A DNA stretch of 64,000 bases from Escherichia coli. GTDB lineage: Bacteria > Pseudomonadota > Gammaproteobacteria > Enterobacterales > Enterobacteriaceae. The position numbers and the translations under genes are program-made. Of this stretch, positions 1,894 through 11,126 are shown in pieces; position 1 is the stretch's first letter; each line of letters opens with the position of its first letter. The notes below the pieces were generated by a model. It was not told the DNA's origin. It did not search any database and worked only from the letters and a program-made list of their open reading frames with translations. The stretch lies in the NCBI RefSeq assembly GCF_048403405.1, contig NZ_CP183129.1; one strand, 5' to 3'.

Positions 1894-2353
1894 CCGTCTA
1901 ACTCCGTGGTTAATGGGTGAGTGGTATTTTCTGTTGTGCAGAGCATGAGACGCTATTTGACCTGGCTGGTCAGTGGATGAAACAACAGATAAAGAAAAGG
2001 CGGACAATCCGCCCGCCTGTCATGATTTGTACTCACTTATTTCCCGACTGACAATTTACATAGCCAAAACGCTATCAAATCTGACAGTCTGCTTTGAGCG
2101 AGGAGCGGAAGTTAAGGGGCGGTTTAGTATCTAACATGATCTATATGAAATAGTGATTCTTGGCGTATTGCTAATACAACCCCGATTTGATGTAACTCTT
2201 GTCCACTTTCATCTAACTTCCTCTTGTTCAGGTTCATTTTTAACTGCTAATATGCAGTATATAAAGGAACATGGGTTTACCGTTGTAAGATGCTGCTGAA
2301 AGGTAAGCATAATTATATTGTTAGGTGTCTTTTTATTTTTAAAGGCTTTAAAC

Positions 2354-3460
2354 ATGTCTAAAACACGCGATGATTTCAGCTCAAAAACTGTAAGAGCTCT
2401 AGCACTACGGGCTGGTTATAGGTGCTCATTCCCCGGTTGTAATCAGCTTACAGTTGGCCCCAGTGATGAATCCTTAACATCTATCACAAATATTGGGGTA
2501 GCTGCGCACATTCATGCCGCAGCTCCTGGGCCATTAGCAAGACGATATGATCCTAATCAAACACCAGATGAAAGGAAAGATATAAATAATGGCATCTGGA
2601 TGTGTGTTAATCACAGCGTTGAAATTGATAGAGATGAAATTAGATATACAGCAGAAATTCTTAAAGAAATGAAGAAAGCCCACGAAGAAGAGATTAAAAA
2701 AGAGGTGAGCAATGGTTCTTCATCAACCAAACATAATGATTTCATTGCAATAGGTATAGACATTATCGTTTTCGGAGAGCTTACCGGAATCTCAACCAAT
2801 GAGTGGACTATAAAATTTGCAAACTTCTTTACTGGCGATTTATCTAAGTTAATATCTTTCAACGAAAGATTCCACTCCATCCCTACCGAAGAAAAATTTA
2901 TTCTAGTTAATCAACTTGGTGAGGGGCGTTTGTTATCAGCACCAATAAAATTAAATAAATTACCAGATAGCTATGAAGTAATCGTCCCTGTTGAAATAGA
3001 CACTCCGCGCATCAATTGCAATAGCCTCCCAATGGATTTAGATATTTTCACGACAGGCGATTTATTTGTAAATAGTTCTGGTGATATAGCTACGATATCG
3101 GGGTTTGAAGCTTTACCACAAAAAATATATACTTCCCTTTCCACCATTAGAGGTGAGATTTATTCCCATCCAACATTGGGTTCCAGAATAAGACAGTTCT
3201 TCCATGACTTTGAAGGAACAATGTGGCTAGACAAATTAGTTAAATTAGAAGTTATACGCTTATCTTGTATACCAATTTTTGATTCAATCACAAAAAACAA
3301 ATACACTCCATTACATTGTGTAAAAAATGTCAAAAATATTCGGGTGATACCAACTGAATATAAAGATAGCAAATTACCTATTGAGTTCACCCTTGATATT
3401 GAAGGTTTCGGCATCTGGTCCAAAGAAATAAGTGTTTTCTCACCTAAATACGATGAATAA
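2354..3460 (+). CDS. Cargo protein with N-terminal HNH-like nuclease motif (C-x4-C ... AAHIHAA ... NGIWMCVNHSVEIDRD) and ~250-aa C-terminal region of unknown function
   Basis: ATG at 2354 preceded by AAAGG; 368 aa; low-GC by eye; sits at the P2 Z/fun variable position between G and FI, on the strand opposite to the late genes. Motif assignment is by eye, not by HMM. Confidence 0.6.
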   Translation: MSKTRDDFSSKTVRALALRAGYRCSFPGCNQLTVGPSDESLTSITNIGVAAHIHAAAPGPLARRYDPNQTPDERKDINNGIWMCVNHSVEIDRDEIRYTAEILKEMKKAHEEEIKKEVSNGSSSTKHNDFIAIGIDIIVFGELTGISTNEWTIKFANFFTGDLSKLISFNERFHSIPTEEKFILVNQLGEGRLLSAPIKLNKLPDSYEVIVPVEIDTPRINCNSLPMDLDIFTTGDLFVNSSGDIATISGFEALPQKIYTSLSTIRGEIYSHPTLGSRIRQFFHDFEGTMWLDKLVKLEVIRLSCIPIFDSITKNKYTPLHCVKNVKNIRVIPTEYKDSKLPIEFTLDIEGFGIWSKEISVFSPKYDE

Positions 3461-3983
3461 AATTGAAGTTCTTGAACCGCTATATTTGGCTCCGGTATTT
3501 ACTCCGTGAGTGGTATCCTAGGGCCCTGTGCGGAGGATTTCATTGTAATGCTCATACGCTGTAGCCAGGTTCATGTTTCTTCAGCAAGGCCATTTGGGCT
3601 AGTGGCCTGCTCCCCATTGCTCCACACAAAAAATTATTCGTTACGTCCGCTCCTGGCACACAGTAGACATCGAGAGACAGCTTCGAGCGATAATCAGAAG
3701 TTCGCAATTGTCATCACCCAAAAGTTGTTTATAACTTGTAGCAAGGTGCATTGTTCAACGTTGAGTTGGTCAAGTTCAGTTAATGATCGGACGATATCTC
3801 ACTCTGCCCAATAGCACATCTGTTTTACGGGAAGTGAGTTTCAACATCACGAGCTTTGTTAGTAAACATCACTTATTTATTAAGAATATGTTTCATAGAA
3901 CAGGGCCGGAGAACTTAATTTCATATTCTAAAAAGTGATGCGCAGACATCACTTTAAACTTTTTAAAGCGCGAAAACCCTACG

Positions 3984-4985
3984 TCAGAATTTGACAGTAG
4001 GAACGGTTGGCCAGATTCTAGCAATAGACTTAAACATAGTCTCCACAATATATTCGAGAACCTCATCATCAGGCTCTTTCATTAATGCTTTTACTTTATT
4101 TATTCTATCCTGAAGTGAAGGGTGAGATTTTGAAAAACCCCAGTTGTTTTTACCTAACATAGTAACGCTGAATAATGCACAGTATATAGAAAGTCTTCTT
4201 TTCCTGCTCACCAACACACGGTCATACATAGACTCTTCACAGTAATTATCTATATGGTCAAGGATGAATTTATTTGCAAACTCATCACATGAGAACTCTT
4301 CATTATGAGCTTGTTCTTGTGTGAATTCATTCATATCATAACTGGTACCTTCCTGCTGATGAATGATATGTCGGACTTCATGCAAAAATGCCCAAGCAGC
4401 AGCAATAATTGCTAATTCAGCTGTTGCTCTTTTAACTGGTTCGATTTTACTGTCAGGCATGGTGCCAGGTTCAGGAATTCCTATTGGTAGTGGTTTTTCA
4501 TCCGGTACCTCATCTTTAGCCGTGTTTTCAAAAGCGCAGATTAACTGTTCAAAGTTTACGAAGTCTGCCGAACTGAAATCAGCAAGTTCTTCCTGTAGCT
4601 CCTCGAGTAAAACATGTAATTCTGACTCGGTTGAGACTAATGATATTTTCTTTGAGTCAAAAAGATCTAAAATAGAATCCCTTTTATCGATAATGTCTTC
4701 AATTTTTTTATTTTGCTCAGTGTTTATTGCTTCGTAGCCCGCCATTGCAGCAAATGTTCCTATCCAGAACGTGCGCAAAACACGATGATTGAAGCGGATA
4801 AATCGATACATCCCCGCATCAAAAATAAATTTACCGTCTGTATGATTATCGCTATGATTTTGGAAGGTCATGTTAAATTTAGACCAGAACTCATCCAGTT
4901 CATTCTGACGCTCTGGAATAGAGGCTAAAAACATTTTTCTTACGCTGTCCTGAACTGTTTTATCTTCATTATGCTCTTCAAACAT
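3984..4985 (-). CDS. Cargo protein with HExxH motif (AWAFLHEVRHIIH), possible zinc metallopeptidase-like protein; acidic N-terminal half
   Basis: ORF 3984..5045; preferred start is ATG at 4985 with GGTGAG upstream (333 aa); alternative TTG at 5045 (353 aa). Convergent with the HNH-like gene; low-GC by eye. Confidence 0.55.
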   Translation of the reverse strand: MFEEHNEDKTVQDSVRKMFLASIPERQNELDEFWSKFNMTFQNHSDNHTDGKFIFDAGMYRFIRFNHRVLRTFWIGTFAAMAGYEAINTEQNKKIEDIIDKRDSILDLFDSKKISLVSTESELHVLLEELQEELADFSSADFVNFEQLICAFENTAKDEVPDEKPLPIGIPEPGTMPDSKIEPVKRATAELAIIAAAWAFLHEVRHIIHQQEGTSYDMNEFTQEQAHNEEFSCDEFANKFILDHIDNYCEESMYDRVLVSRKRRLSIYCALFSVTMLGKNNWGFSKSHPSLQDRINKVKALMKEPDDEVLEYIVETMFKSIARIWPTVPTVKF

Positions 4986-5248
4986 TTGCTCACCTATATT
5001 GCTGTTAATTTTATCTAATGATGAACCGAGTGGGTTGTTTACCAAGCCTCATGTTACATGTTTTTTGCTTTCCGAATATTTAAGCGTTAGAAGCAAGTAG
5101 GAAAAACGTAGAGCAGTTAACCAAGGCTTTCTACAGGCAGATTAACATAACTTGGTCAGGAATGTCCGCTCTTGGCACATAGCGGACTGTCAGATTAGGC
5201 TTTACTCTGTGCTATAGATATGTAAGCTCACACCAGAGATCATACAAC

Positions 5249-5776
5249 TTATTGCGGCATTTCCGGCCATTCGGGATTTGCAGGATCCACACGACTGACC
5301 AGAACGCTGTAGCGTTCCCATGCTTCCAGTCGGCTGCGTTCCTCATCCGTCGCCATATTCAGCCTGACAGCGCGTTCCAGCGGCAAAATCACGGATTCAG
5401 CTTCGGAAAGTAAAGCTGCCTTTTGTGATTCTGCCTGTTGCTCCTGTTCATCTGCCGTATAAATCCGCTTAATCACGGCACCATCCTTAAACATCCATTT
5501 ACCTGAGTCATCAGCACGTCGGTTGGAGGTAATATCAGGAACCTCGACAACGCTGAAACCTTCAGGGTTAAGCGTTGAAGCATCTCTGGTGATGCCGACA
5601 ATTATATTATTCTCGTCGTAAACAATCTTTATCGTGTCTTCCTGAAAATTACTTACTTCCTCATACCAGTTTTTTCCCTCTTCGGACCATAACCAGATAA
5701 CATCAAAATTTTTTGTCAGTTGATATTGGGCAACAGTTTTTGGATTACCCGCAGTAATATTTTTTAAATGCTGCAT
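5249..5776 (-). CDS. G: Tail fibre assembly protein gpG
   Basis: 175 aa, [19 protein letters not shown]..., immediately downstream of H as in P2. Confidence 0.85.
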
Positions 5777-5779
5777 AAA

Positions 5780-7825
5780 TTACACCTGTGCGACGTTATA
5801 CCATGTGCCATTGATGTATTTTTGTATTGGCCTGAATACTGCGGGGTCATCACCATCGACTTCACCGACAATACCAAGCCCGGTAATTACGTGCCCTGCT
5901 TTCTCATACATCACCCCTTTCTGCATGGTCTGGACAACACGTGTGCCAAGTCTGATATCTCTCACATAGCGGGAATCAAAGTTACCGTAATCCGAGGGAT
6001 TAACACGCCCCGTAATATTTATGGTCTTATTACTTTGAATGCTTCCGGAAACAAAGCGCATAACATGGACGTTATTAGCATAAACATCCAGATTACCATC
6101 GCCATTTTGTTTAAATCCGGTGTCGTTATCACCAAGAACAATAGAGTTCCCACCCAACGCGTTATTCGTGCCAAGTGCCAGCCCGCCATCAATCCTGGCA
6201 CCATTACCAACAGACACAACTCCTGTTCTTAAGTTGATGCCGAATGGCCTTAATGGCCCAATATCTCCATTTTCACCCTCATTTTCTCGTGTAGGAATGA
6301 TATACAGGTTTTCTTCAGAACGGCGAAAAATAGCACCAAAAGATGAATTAAATATCCTCAGCGCATTGACTGTAGATATTTTTACTTCACTGCTGAAAAG
6401 GGCTTTAACAAGAACATACAGAGCATCCCATTTAAGATTCATCAGGTCTTTTGTTGTGGTGCTCTGGCGACTTCTCCATTTGAAATATTCATTGCCGTTA
6501 TCCCCCGTTTCAAACCACATGTATGAATCAGTGTCACCATCGGCATCATTTTTAAATCCAATCTTCGCCCAGTCAGTATTTCGAATCCAGGCAAGGATTG
6601 AGTCGTTTTCAAAAGTAAGTCCACCGGACAAGGTATCGCCATTTTTTTGCACGGCGTTCCCGGCTCGGTTTACCGTTTCCTGTAAACCGAGATATTCGAT
6701 AACGGCGGCAACGGTCGATTTAGCCAGAATATCCCGCCCGACTTTTGTCAGGGTCGCCAGGCTGGCAACATCATTCCCCGTAAAATACGGAAACCTGTCT
6801 GCCGCAGTAGCAAGCCCCGCCAGCGCCGTCAAAGTGGCATCTTTCGGTTGCTTACCCGCAAGCGCATTAGTCATGGTGGTAGCAAAATTCGGGTCATTGC
6901 CCAGCGCCGCCGCCAGCTCGTTCAGCGTATTCAGTGCGTCAGGCGACGAGTCTACAAGGGCGGCAATCGCGGCCATAACGAAAGCCGTGTTTGCGATCTG
7001 AGTATTATTCGTTCCCTGTCGCGCAGTTGGCGTCGTTGGCGTTCCGGTCAGTGCAGGGCTGTTTAATGGCGCTTTCTTGTTCGTTTCATCCATTACCGTC
7101 TTAACGGCTTTTGGTGTTGCGGCGAGCGTTTCAGACGTGCTGTTGGTCGCACTACTGAGCTGGACAAGGCCTTTTCGCGCTATGGTGGCGTCCTGTGCGG
7201 TATATTTCCCGTTAGCAAGGTCATACGCGGCCTTTACCGCTTTCGGCGTTGCGGCCAGTGTTTCAGACGTGCTGTTGGTCGCACTGCTTAACTGAGTAAA
7301 ACCTTTTGCGGTCAGCGAGGCGTCAGGGTGACGTCGTGACTGTTCATGTTCTGCAATTTTGTCATCAACGTAATCCTGCGTTGCCATCACCGTTGTGGTG
7401 TCAATGGTCAGCTCCACTGAGGCCACACTGCTGACGATGATGACCATGCGGCAGGTCTGCGAACGCCCTGAGCCTTCGGCAAGGGCTGGCTTATAACTTT
7501 CGGCCATGTTCGCCACGGCAATTAGCGTTCCCGCATCATCGTACAGGCCAAGTTCACGCATCCAGAAACCGCCCACCTCCGGCGGAATAACCAGCTCTGC
7601 GATAATATAATTACTGTTTCGTTTGTCCTGGCTGATTTTGTTCAGCGCATGTCGCCAGACTTCGTGGATAAGCCCGGTCTGTCCGGCATCCGGGACAGGC
7701 AATTTACCACCGCCATCCCCGACGGCCATCGTGGTAATGTTGACCTTCCGCCCTCCCGGTGCGGTTGCCGCTGCCAGCTTTGCTGCACCGGCAGTGGTGA
7801 TAACGGTTTTGAATTTTGTGCTCAT
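5780..7825 (-). CDS. H: Tail fibre protein gpH
   Basis: 681 aa; conserved N-terminus MSTKFKTVITTAGAAKLAAA; internal repeats LSSATNSTSETLAATPKAVK; variable C-terminal receptor-binding region. Confidence 0.9.
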   Translation of the reverse strand: MSTKFKTVITTAGAAKLAAATAPGGRKVNITTMAVGDGGGKLPVPDAGQTGLIHEVWRHALNKISQDKRNSNYIIAELVIPPEVGGFWMRELGLYDDAGTLIAVANMAESYKPALAEGSGRSQTCRMVIIVSSVASVELTIDTTTVMATQDYVDDKIAEHEQSRRHPDASLTAKGFTQLSSATNSTSETLAATPKAVKAAYDLANGKYTAQDATIARKGLVQLSSATNSTSETLAATPKAVKTVMDETNKKAPLNSPALTGTPTTPTARQGTNNTQIANTAFVMAAIAALVDSSPDALNTLNELAAALGNDPNFATTMTNALAGKQPKDATLTALAGLATAADRFPYFTGNDVASLATLTKVGRDILAKSTVAAVIEYLGLQETVNRAGNAVQKNGDTLSGGLTFENDSILAWIRNTDWAKIGFKNDADGDTDSYMWFETGDNGNEYFKWRSRQSTTTKDLMNLKWDALYVLVKALFSSEVKISTVNALRIFNSSFGAIFRRSEENLYIIPTRENEGENGDIGPLRPFGINLRTGVVSVGNGARIDGGLALGTNNALGGNSIVLGDNDTGFKQNGDGNLDVYANNVHVMRFVSGSIQSNKTINITGRVNPSDYGNFDSRYVRDIRLGTRVVQTMQKGVMYEKAGHVITGLGIVGEVDGDDPAVFRPIQKYINGTWYNVAQV

Positions 7826-9271: not shown

Positions 9272-9619
9272 TCAACTCACAGGGATGGTTAATGAAAGTG
9301 GCTGGCCGGTGTCGTTGTGCTGGCCGGTTAACGTGACCGTCATTCGCCCGTCAAAGCTGCGCGCCGTGGTAACGGATGACAGGGTGACGCGGGGTTCCCA
9401 TTTCAGCACCGCCATGTAACAGGCGACCTTAATCTGCAACTCAAGCGCCGGGGTCTGCGGCTGGTCAATCATTGACGCCAGCAACGAGCCGTAATCACGA
9501 CGCATCACCCGTGAGCCGACCGGCGTGCGCAGGATATCGCCGATACTCTGGCTGATATGCTCAAGGTCAGTGACAGTCAGGCCATCACTGCGATTCATTC
9601 CGAGATAACGCGCTGTCAT
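9272..9619 (-). CDS. W: Baseplate protein gpW
   Basis: 115 aa, P2 order. Confidence 0.85.
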   Translation of the reverse strand: MTARYLGMNRSDGLTVTDLEHISQSIGDILRTPVGSRVMRRDYGSLLASMIDQPQTPALELQIKVACYMAVLKWEPRVTLSSVTTARSFDGRMTVTLTGQHNDTGQPLSLTIPVS

Positions 9620-10340: not shown

Positions 10341-11126
10341 ATGGTCAGCTATAATGTGACTAATGTGTGGGGGCTAATCGTTTTTTTCCTTTGTAGCTTT
10401 GCAGTATTAGCATTTTTTAGCTTTGGTAAAAGTAACCTTATGAGGCTTATTGCACATTATTTCAATTTTGGATATTCAGACAAAAAATTAAAAAGACTTG
10501 ACCGCGAGTGGCGCGACATTCAACTATTTAAAATAATTAATGGAATCAATGTATCAGGCATTGAAAATGTGAGAATGATACAGCAGGGACTGATTGATGG
10601 AAAACTAAAAACATCGTATTTTTTCCTTACTCGCATCTGGGGTGACATAACAAAACCACCACACATAATTAAAACAATAATTGTAATTCTGGCCAGTATT
10701 TTTTACATTCTCCTCGCATGTTACATACACAACGAACAATCCGTTATAGTAAGGGATGCCATAGGCATACCATATAAAAACATGATGTACTATGTTTATA
10801 GTGACAAAGTTCTTTTATCCTTCAAAAATAAAGCAGTTGAATTTAATAAAACTTATAGCCTTGCCGATTGCAAGAGACTGCAAAACGTATTTATAAAAGA
10901 CACACTTCCTGAGATCGCCTGCAATAAGCTCTTACAGCTAAACGAGGAGGACTCCGAATGGTTAAGCCAGGAGATTAAAGATAATAACAGTCACAAAAAA
11001 GCATTATTAATACTATCCCTCGTCTATTTCACTTCAGGTCTGGTTATATTCCTGTCATATACAAAATTCTTTTACGCCAATAAGAAGGTTTTAGAATACA
11101 AAGCATCAAATAAAAATCACTCATAA
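10341..11126 (+). CDS. Cargo membrane protein with three hydrophobic segments, at the P2 orf30 position; function unknown
   Basis: ATG at 10341 with AAGGAG 7 nt upstream; 261 aa; hydrophobic helices near residues 9-28, ~110-130 and ~222-241; strongly AT-rich by eye; opposite strand to flanking late genes; followed by a 12-bp-stem hairpin. Confidence 0.6.
   Translation: MVSYNVTNVWGLIVFFLCSFAVLAFFSFGKSNLMRLIAHYFNFGYSDKKLKRLDREWRDIQLFKIINGINVSGIENVRMIQQGLIDGKLKTSYFFLTRIWGDITKPPHIIKTIIVILASIFYILLACYIHNEQSVIVRDAIGIPYKNMMYYVYSDKVLLSFKNKAVEFNKTYSLADCKRLQNVFIKDTLPEIACNKLLQLNEEDSEWLSQEIKDNNSHKKALLILSLVYFTSGLVIFLSYTKFFYANKKVLEYKASNKNHS

Follow-up and report, generated by a model that had tools for sequence, protein, structure and literature searches.

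The gene at 2354-3460 (+ strand) of a 64,000-nucleotide stretch of Escherichia coli DNA (NZ_CP183129.1; the whole stretch is termed the window below) codes for the already published defence protein DS-7 (working id SVIR; WP_225403053.1). DS-7 acts against phage as a single protein, and its gene belongs to the cargo that a P2-like prophage has in its Z/fun hotspot. An N-terminal nuclease domain is followed by a barrel and a gp25-like domain, and across its relatives this C-terminal module is combined with at least six or seven types of effector. In DS-7 the copy of a baseplate protein probably acts as an infection sensor.

DS-7 and its place in the Z/fun hotspot

The surrounding genes form a P2-type late operon on the - strand with FII (172-690), FI (703-2007), G (5249-5776) and H (5780-7825); beyond H come I, J, W and V. 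FI and G are separated by about 3.2 kb of low-GC DNA (0.34-0.44 compared with 0.52-0.58 in the flanks), and DS-7 is transcribed against the late operon. Its ORF, which according to the ORF list has an ATG start and 368 aa plus stop, has a GC content of 0.34-0.40 (about 36%), the flanking tail genes one of 0.52-0.58 (about 56%). A first-pass annotation of the sequence had described a 368-aa AT-rich ORF on the strand opposite to the late operon, in the hotspot between tail genes G and FI; ORF, strand, composition and location were all borne out. An alternative TTG start at 2318 would give a protein of 380 aa. The features of the locus are:

2078..2112, no strand: boundary inverted repeat, FI side (repeat search; 'Right inverted repeat' in AJ512680)
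2225..2253, + strand: candidate native promoter, TTGTTC-17 nt-TAATAT (read from the sequence)
2342-2345, + strand: ribosome-binding site AAGG of DS-7 (read from the sequence)
2354..3460, + strand: DS-7 CDS (ORF list; DNA identity to NZ_CP103479.1 and NZ_CP135719.1; PMC13092281)
3643..3668, no strand: third, internal repeat copy between the two cargo genes, in G-side orientation
3984..5045, - strand: Lit-family gene for a putative zinc metalloprotease, convergent to DS-7, with a HEVRH motif of the HExxH zinc-site type (NCBIfam, PADLOC, RefSeq name)
5165..5196, no strand: boundary inverted repeat, G side (repeat search; 'Left inverted repeat' in AJ512680)

Positions 2000-5300 of the window are 100% identical in DNA to NZ_CP103479.1 and NZ_CP135719.1, where the CDS is WP_225403053.1. 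This accession is in the tables of the DefensePredictor paper (PMC13092281, Science 2026). Therefore, the gene in the window is DS-7. The two sequences are the same without any difference, and the sequence parts printed in Table S8 of that paper agree with the translation of the ORF. The RefSeq product name of WP_225403053.1 is 'DUF2634 domain-containing' or 'GPW/gp25 family' protein. Among 5.8 billion proteins searched there were 276 homologues with E-values down to 1e-245, nearly all of them full-length among the matches listed. This excluded a chance ORF. Also among the matches listed, the homologues came from diverse Proteobacteria at 38-49% identity (E 1e-106 to 1e-80).

The cargo of DS-7 and the Lit-family gene was found in 5 of 5,426 complete E. 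coli genomes, four times at 100% identity and once at 99.9%. Prophage P2-EC46 (AJ512680) has a 'Z-region' which matches the 3.3-kb cargo at 99.8% identity; in it DS-7 is ORF2 (CAD54902.1) and both cargo genes are labelled 'putative lysogenic conversion proteins'. The promoter and ribosome-binding elements read from the window agree in position, to about 2 nt, with the -35, -10 and RBS annotated in AJ512680. A strict sigma-70 consensus scan did not recover the annotated promoter and found fewer promoter-like sites than in shuffled sequences. P2 Z/fun and the P2-EC46 Z-region have the insertion site and the bounding inverted repeats in common with the DS-7 cargo. In a DNA-level comparison P2 and most P2-like phages aligned in the flanks only, i.e. 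over 7-8% of the 3.3-kb query. Because P2 shares no more than these flanks, the DS-7 cargo is, at the DNA level, unrelated to Z/fun.

The cargo is bounded by a 32-nt inverted repeat (2078-2109 and 5165-5196, 84% complementary). The third repeat copy, 81% complementary to 2087-2112, lies between the two genes. Therefore, DS-7 and the Lit-family gene look like two separately acquired cassettes. The second cargo gene had not been listed in the first-pass annotation. Compared with Lit (peptidase U49), it matched NCBIfam NF007238 with an E-value of 3e-22 and 79 bits, under the 274-bit cut-off, and the PADLOC Lit profile with an E-value of 9.5e-10; judged by these profile scores it is a family relative and no equivalog. 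RefSeq places its start at 4985 (333 aa). A 2026 preprint on P2 and P4 mentions a Lit homologue in one P2-like prophage; this is probably the gene at 3984-5045. The DS-7 protein is mentioned neither in this preprint nor in Rousset 2022.

In the DefensePredictor paper SVIR is DS-7, a single CDS termed 'predicted novel defense gene' (PMC13092281, Table S6). Its source was an E. coli strain from an ECOR-based set. DS-7 was cloned alone with its native promoter (strain MG1655 pCV1-SVIR in Table S11 of PMC13092281). Since it was cloned as a single CDS, DS-7 is active without the Lit-family gene. In MG1655 it protected against Bas60 with a -log(EOP) of 2.70, about 500-fold less plating (Table S7 of PMC13092281), and its entry in Table S8 reads 'replicated TRUE'. 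Bas60 is a myovirus, a phi92-like relative of the Vequintavirinae (PMC8594841). Among the primary-screen rows of Table S7 that we examined, DS-7 protection is recorded for Bas60 only, four or more further systems in that table act on Bas60 too, and the rows examined hold none of DS-7 for T4, RB69, Bas50 and Bas63, the other myoviruses of the panel. Table S8 gives two HHpred domains, HNH at 5-122 against Cap5 7RWK and 'phage baseplate' at 225-350 against the sheath initiator 8ENV_M, each with probability 0.99. The tables further contain an HHblits match to NinG PF05766 (His-Me finger clan; probability 95.7). The main text has just 'a phage baseplate protein' among the newly validated defence domains (PMC13092281). 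Mutants or a mechanism of DS-7 are not reported in that paper, and the P2 hotspot context, the middle domain and the effector-swapped relatives are not covered. The first-pass annotation had proposed a nuclease-based defence or exclusion protein of a type it could not name. The identical protein has a phage phenotype, and the nuclease-based defence role is correct and already published; the type now has its name, DS-7.

Nuclease, barrel and sheath-initiator-like domains

An AlphaFold2 model of DS-7 computed with 60 homologues had a pLDDT of 88.4 and a pTM of 0.85; for residues 124-368 alone the values were 92.9 and 0.91. Three domains were delimited:

2354..2719, + strand: Cap5-type HNH (His-Me finger) nuclease domain, residues 1-122 (PADLOC, PDB sequence, Foldseek, conserved columns)
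2729..2998, + strand: beta-rich middle domain, residues ~126-215, beta-beta-beta-alpha-beta4
3029..3439, + strand: gp25/GpW/DUF2634 sheath-initiator-like domain, residues ~226-362

The N-terminal motifs in which the first-pass annotation had seen the pattern of HNH-type endonucleases, C24-x4-C29, AAHIHAA at 50-56 and NNGIWMCVNHSVEIDRD at 78-94, are present in the translation where they had been reported. Residues 3-130 matched the PADLOC profiles PDC-M68A, CBASS 'Effector Endonuclease', SAVED_HNH and the N-terminus of SduA with E-values of 1e-23 to 1e-16. Sequence matches in the PDB were Cap5 8ysq (E 1e-8), 9om4 and 7rwm. Foldseek matched the domain to Cap5 8fmf (E 1e-4, probability 1.00), 9dih and 7rwm. 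C29, H52, N79 and C84 were invariant in 60 homologues, and C24, H87 and D94 were kept in at least 90% of them. H52, N79 and H87 align with the corresponding residues of Cap5 8ysq. The alignment of the catalytic His and Asn anticipated in the first-pass annotation was thus obtained, and on these conserved columns His52, Asn79 and His87 are proposed as the catalytic residues. The profile search had a divided outcome. An hmmscan of Pfam-A returned PF10934 only, without any HNH family, and the NCBIfam search of the protein matched no family, whereas the PADLOC profiles of HNH effectors did match. The HNH domain is too divergent for plain hmmscan, not absent. With Pfam-A giving no match, the HNH call is based on the PADLOC profiles, the PDB sequence matches, the fold search and residue conservation. 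Within the DS-7 family the mean pairwise identity is 56% in the HNH half compared with 41-46% in the C-terminal module.

Among known defence systems Cap5 of CBASS is close to DS-7. The two N-terminal HNH domains resemble each other by sequence as well as in fold, and the His, Asn and His that align are kept; both proteins share the layout of an N-terminal effector and a C-terminal sensor. Cap5 is activated by ligand-induced oligomerisation. However, the SAVED domain of Cap5 is not in DS-7. SAVED_HNH profiles matched the HNH part only (5-124), and a gp25-like fold takes its place. Nor is the CD-NTase gene of Cap5 found beside DS-7, where the neighbours are FI, the Lit-family gene and G, or in the homologue contexts examined. 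Lacking a SAVED domain and a nearby CD-NTase, DS-7 works without a cyclic-nucleotide signal. Other likenesses are equally restricted to the nuclease. PADLOC PDC-M68 (M68A) has the Cap5-type HNH domain in common with DS-7, yet the match comprises profile positions 4-124 of 253 only and there is no conserved partner. In Shedu SduA positions 14-133, an HNH-like N-terminal extension, match residues 4-129 of DS-7, whereas the DUF4263 nuclease domain is not matched. PHROGs 21516 and 29098 share the Cap5-type HNH domain, with the match confined to residues ~3-130.

According to the first-pass annotation the HNH motifs were followed by about 250 aa without a recognisable motif. This was wrong: residues ~226-362 have the gp25/GpW/DUF2634 sheath-initiator fold. 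The Pfam match to PF10934 is weak (i-E 0.0034). PHROG baseplate families 975 and 120 match the C-terminal domain. In the PDB the family profile found phi812 ORF61 as best match (E 7.6e-5) as well as a GPW/gp25 protein, E217 gp34 and Pa193 gp35, and the BFVD matches of the module were mostly gpW/gp25/DUF2634 baseplate proteins. A tblastn search of 50,697 phage records with the module yielded mainly baseplate proteins of Herelleviridae (E 1e-3 to 1e-2). The family signature is ALPQkIxxxLSxxrGExxxhPxxGsR with the conserved residues Q256, L262, G267, E268 and G276; it aligns with phi812 ORF61, 9rce and P2-type gpW. The middle domain has a conserved loop, N186-x-L-G-D-G191-R192, and is tentatively assigned as a small barrel of the tail-tube/Hcp-like or PilZ-like type.

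The fold of the DS-7 C-terminus is thus shared with the sheath initiators T4 gp25, P2 gpW, TssE, Afp9 and pyocin PA0617 (PF10934, PF04965). Unlike these, the DS-7 domain is preceded by a nuclease and a barrel in one fusion protein, the gene is located outside the tail cluster on the opposite strand, and the EPR motif does not appear to be conserved. This Glu-Pro-Arg motif docks sheath initiators such as T4 gp25 and TssE on the wedge core bundle. In the gpW of the resident prophage it reads WEPRV. The hhalign alignment of DS-7 with gpW ends 10 residues short of the motif. When it is extended, Pro76 of gpW comes within 2 residues of the conserved Pro307 of DS-7, an approximate comparison. Glu and Arg flanking Pro307 are not conserved in the family, for which the consensus is A-x-I-P-Y. 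By this alignment the EPR motif seems to be reduced to the lone conserved Pro307.

The gene for the resident structural gpW (9272-9619, - strand) is flanked by V and J. A recent duplication of this gene as the origin of DS-7 was ruled out (BLASTP E = 12). Likewise, DS-7 was ruled out as a structural tail protein: the prophage has its own gpW, and DS-7 is at a moron site on the opposite strand with a likely promoter and an RBS of its own. That the module mimics the initiator of its target phage was unsupported, since Phi92_gp139 is a weak match (E 0.11) and phi812 ORF61 a better one.

The C-terminal module behind other effectors

Residues 124-368 were turned into a profile, which among 1.84 billion cluster representatives found 503 at E <= 1e-3, of which 358 had E <= 1e-10. 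In most of the 503 the module is at ~124-365 and is preceded by an HNH domain. In some longer proteins the same module follows other N-terminal domains:

TIR + module: P0159, P0189, P0220 and P0250, four separate clusters (ThsB and PDC-S66 profiles, E down to 1e-60)
PD-T4-6/Stk2-type Ser/Thr kinase + module: P0198 (E 3e-38)
trypsin-like protease, as in Avs1b and LmuA, + module: P0216 (E 5e-16)
PNP-type CBASS effector domain + module: P0227 (E 3e-16)
different endonuclease + module: P0187 and P0195
caspase-like and cyclase-like domains + module: more weakly supported

Over residues 128-364 DS-7 shares 32% identity with the TIR fusion (E 5e-45); for the kinase fusion the value is 27% (E 6e-31). 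In DS-7 and in the fusions effector and module are joined at the same IAxGP strand. The exchange of effectors on a constant C-terminal module indicates that the module is the sensing or regulatory half and the HNH domain the killing half.

On a 201-kb contig the TIR fusion adjoins DarT/Macro (DarTG) and an nSTAND NTPase. Homologues of DS-7 are located in defence islands and at the edges of or within ICEs; they also adjoin DUF4238 genes, SIR2, an OLD-family ATPase and a type I RM/PIN/helicase cluster. The P2 hotspot has DUF4238 among its validated defences (PMC9122126). DUF4238 was a neighbour in two homologue contexts, at variable distance. A full-length homologue, annotated with a truncated start, adjoins the integrase of the P2-like Yersinia phage vB_YenM_31.17. 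A PADLOC scan of the neighbours on both sides of five diverse homologues revealed no conserved partner gene. Therefore, DS-7 is treated as a single-gene system. In the literature searched we found no paper which describes the family of the C-terminal module and nothing which links DUF2634, gp25 or sheath initiators with HNH nucleases or defence; the DS-7 accessions were not in the main texts.

Proposed sensing of infection and alternative readings

Sheath initiators normally assemble six-fold around the baseplate hub and nucleate the sheath. Effectors of the Cap5-type HNH, TIR, PNP and protease classes commonly depend on oligomerisation. Against this background we envisage that the DS-7 nuclease is kept inactive before infection. 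The phage-derived module would then bind a component of the assembling contractile tail or baseplate of the invader, or it would be templated into a ring. This might bring the HNH domains together and switch on DNA cleavage, by analogy to the activation of Cap5 by ligand-driven oligomerisation, and phage and/or host DNA would be destroyed late in infection. Because the module has its ancestry in baseplate sheath initiators and a myovirus is the single target known, the most economical trigger would be some component of the tail or baseplate. Several data weaken this particular step. Bas60 is the sole sensitive phage in the Table S7 rows examined, and it is also restricted by other systems. The same rows have no DS-7 entry for T4, RB69, Bas50 or Bas63, and as far as these rows go a general contractile-tail sensor is unsupported. 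Further, the module is not specially similar to the phi92 initiator, and its EPR motif seems degenerate. Taken together, we lean, by no great degree, towards the sensor-effector account with a tail-related trigger.

A different trigger would leave most of this account in place. The phage-derived fold may be just a borrowed scaffold, and what the module senses may have nothing to do with tails, e.g. a different phage protein, some nucleic-acid structure or a small-molecule ligand of the barrel. We take this possibility seriously but regard it as unlikely, as the gp25 signature LPQxIxxxLSxxxGE...P..G is strongly conserved, which speaks for the retention of a gp25-type protein-protein interface, and the only known target of DS-7 is a contractile-tailed phage. 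The gp25-like fold with its signature and the myovirus nature of Bas60 would also fit an assembly poison which replaces the sheath initiator in the baseplate of the invader and blocks sheath polymerisation, the HNH domain being secondary or idle. Yet relatives carry this module behind TIR, kinase, protease and PNP domains, an arrangement that is hard to explain if the module were the weapon. In addition, the catalytic HNH residues are invariant or nearly so, the HNH domain is the most conserved part of DS-7, and the EPR docking motif seems degenerate. This renders the poison decidedly improbable.

We also judge it improbable that DS-7 is akin to a restriction enzyme, with a C-terminal half which recognises a feature of the DNA, e.g. 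a base modification in a type IV-like manner, and thereby directs the HNH domain to phage DNA. Modification-dependent enzymes classically combine an HNH domain with a reader domain (PMC6765204), and a remote HHpred match to 'RM_Type_II REases HNH endonuclease' covers 24% of DS-7 (PMC13092281). However, this match is confined to the HNH domain, the C-terminal fold matches assembly components of contractile machines and no known DNA readers, and the module drives non-nuclease effectors as well. A function outside of defence, as a homing endonuclease or, within a contractile injection system, as a toxin or a structural component, might be considered in that HNH domains are found in homing endonucleases and T6SS toxins and TssE is a gp25 homologue. 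Its probability is close to nil. It is contradicted by the published anti-phage phenotype of DS-7 alone in MG1655 (PMC13092281), no immunity gene or secretion cluster is conserved beside the homologues, and the prophage has its own gpW whereas DS-7 is in a moron hotspot on the opposite strand.

With hundreds of protein clusters in the module family, found in defence islands and mobile elements, DS-7 is not a one-off but the accessible member of a family of sensors. A wider proposal goes beyond the sensor-effector account of DS-7 itself. The barrel and the sheath-initiator-like domain may form a previously undescribed, widespread class of immune sensor that was borrowed from contractile-tail baseplates; it would join, or be templated by, the nascent baseplate or tail of a myovirus, and the clustering would activate whichever effector is attached. 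We consider this possible, though on balance doubtful. If it is true, DS-7 would be the first experimentally tractable member of that sensor class. The hypothesis offered is that tail or baseplate assembly is sensed by structural mimicry. Few cases are known in which bacterial immunity directly recognises phage structural proteins, i.e. Avs, CapRel and Lit. If the hypothesis is confirmed, DS-7 would join them with the difference that its sensor would itself descend from a structural protein of a virus.

Cargo genes of the Z/fun hotspot and a further late-region ORF

The second cargo gene of the hotspot is convergent with DS-7, the HNH nuclease, and encodes a Lit-family protein.

3984-5045, minus strand: Lit-family zinc metalloprotease gene with an HEVRH motif (NCBIfam NF007238)
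2078-2112, 3643-3668 and 5165-5196: three copies of the approximately 30-nt hotspot boundary repeat
10341-11126, plus strand: 261-aa ORF, opposite strand, within the late region and adjoining gene V

The match to NF007238 (E 3e-22) scored far below the family cut-off; therefore, by sequence, the product is predicted to be a diverged relative of the protease responsible for T4 exclusion. RefSeq places the start at 4985, which yields 333 aa. A 2026 preprint records a Lit homologue in one P2-like prophage. An additional copy of the boundary repeat separates DS-7 from the Lit-family gene. This suggests that the two cargo genes arrived independently, each as a cassette inserted at a site prone to recombination.

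The 261-aa ORF is rich in lysine, asparagine and isoleucine and has hydrophobic segments. Its sole match was PHROG 2407, a family of unknown function, and a comparison with PADLOC gave no match. Possibly this ORF is another moron.

Naming and annotation of DS-7 and a phage homologue

The DS-7 label is inconsistent within the DefensePredictor paper, which matters when citing it. In Table S9 'DS-7A/DS-7B' denotes a HipA-like two-gene system, whereas in Tables S6, S8 and S11 and in the main text the HipA-like system is DS-6 and SVIR is DS-7 (PMC13092281).

A full-length homologue is carried by another P2-like phage, in which it adjoins the integrase.

L014, 2623-3762: DS-7 homologue, 379 aa, Yersinia phage vB_YenM_31.17 (OM140653.1)

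It shares 44% identity with DS-7 over 299 aligned residues. The GenBank entry, a 'lysogenic conversion protein' of 312 aa, uses an internal start which removes most of the HNH domain.

Genomic neighbours and effector exchange

L005, 7168-8049, and L008, 7938-8870: DUF4238 genes close downstream of DS-7 homologues
L011, 6001-7518: DS-7 homologue P0006, 505 aa
L015, 5001-6599: TIR-module fusion

DUF4238, a validated defence of the P2 hotspot (PMC9122126), occurs twice on the downstream side of a DS-7 homologue, in genomic settings that are unrelated to each other. Because the gap differs (22 nt in one case, two genes in the other), the linkage is uncertain. The homologue P0006 is extended at its C-terminus by about 130 aa. 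Genes for a type I HsdR, a PIN protein and a DEAD helicase directly precede its gene; the four share a strand and are separated by almost no intergenic sequence. P0006 may be an operon-embedded variant.

In relatives, the barrel and gp25-like module follows TIR, kinase, protease, PNP or other nuclease domains (effector-swapped proteins P0159, P0189, P0220, P0250, P0198, P0216, P0227, P0187 and P0195). The TIR-module fusion neighbours DarTG and an nSTAND NTPase.
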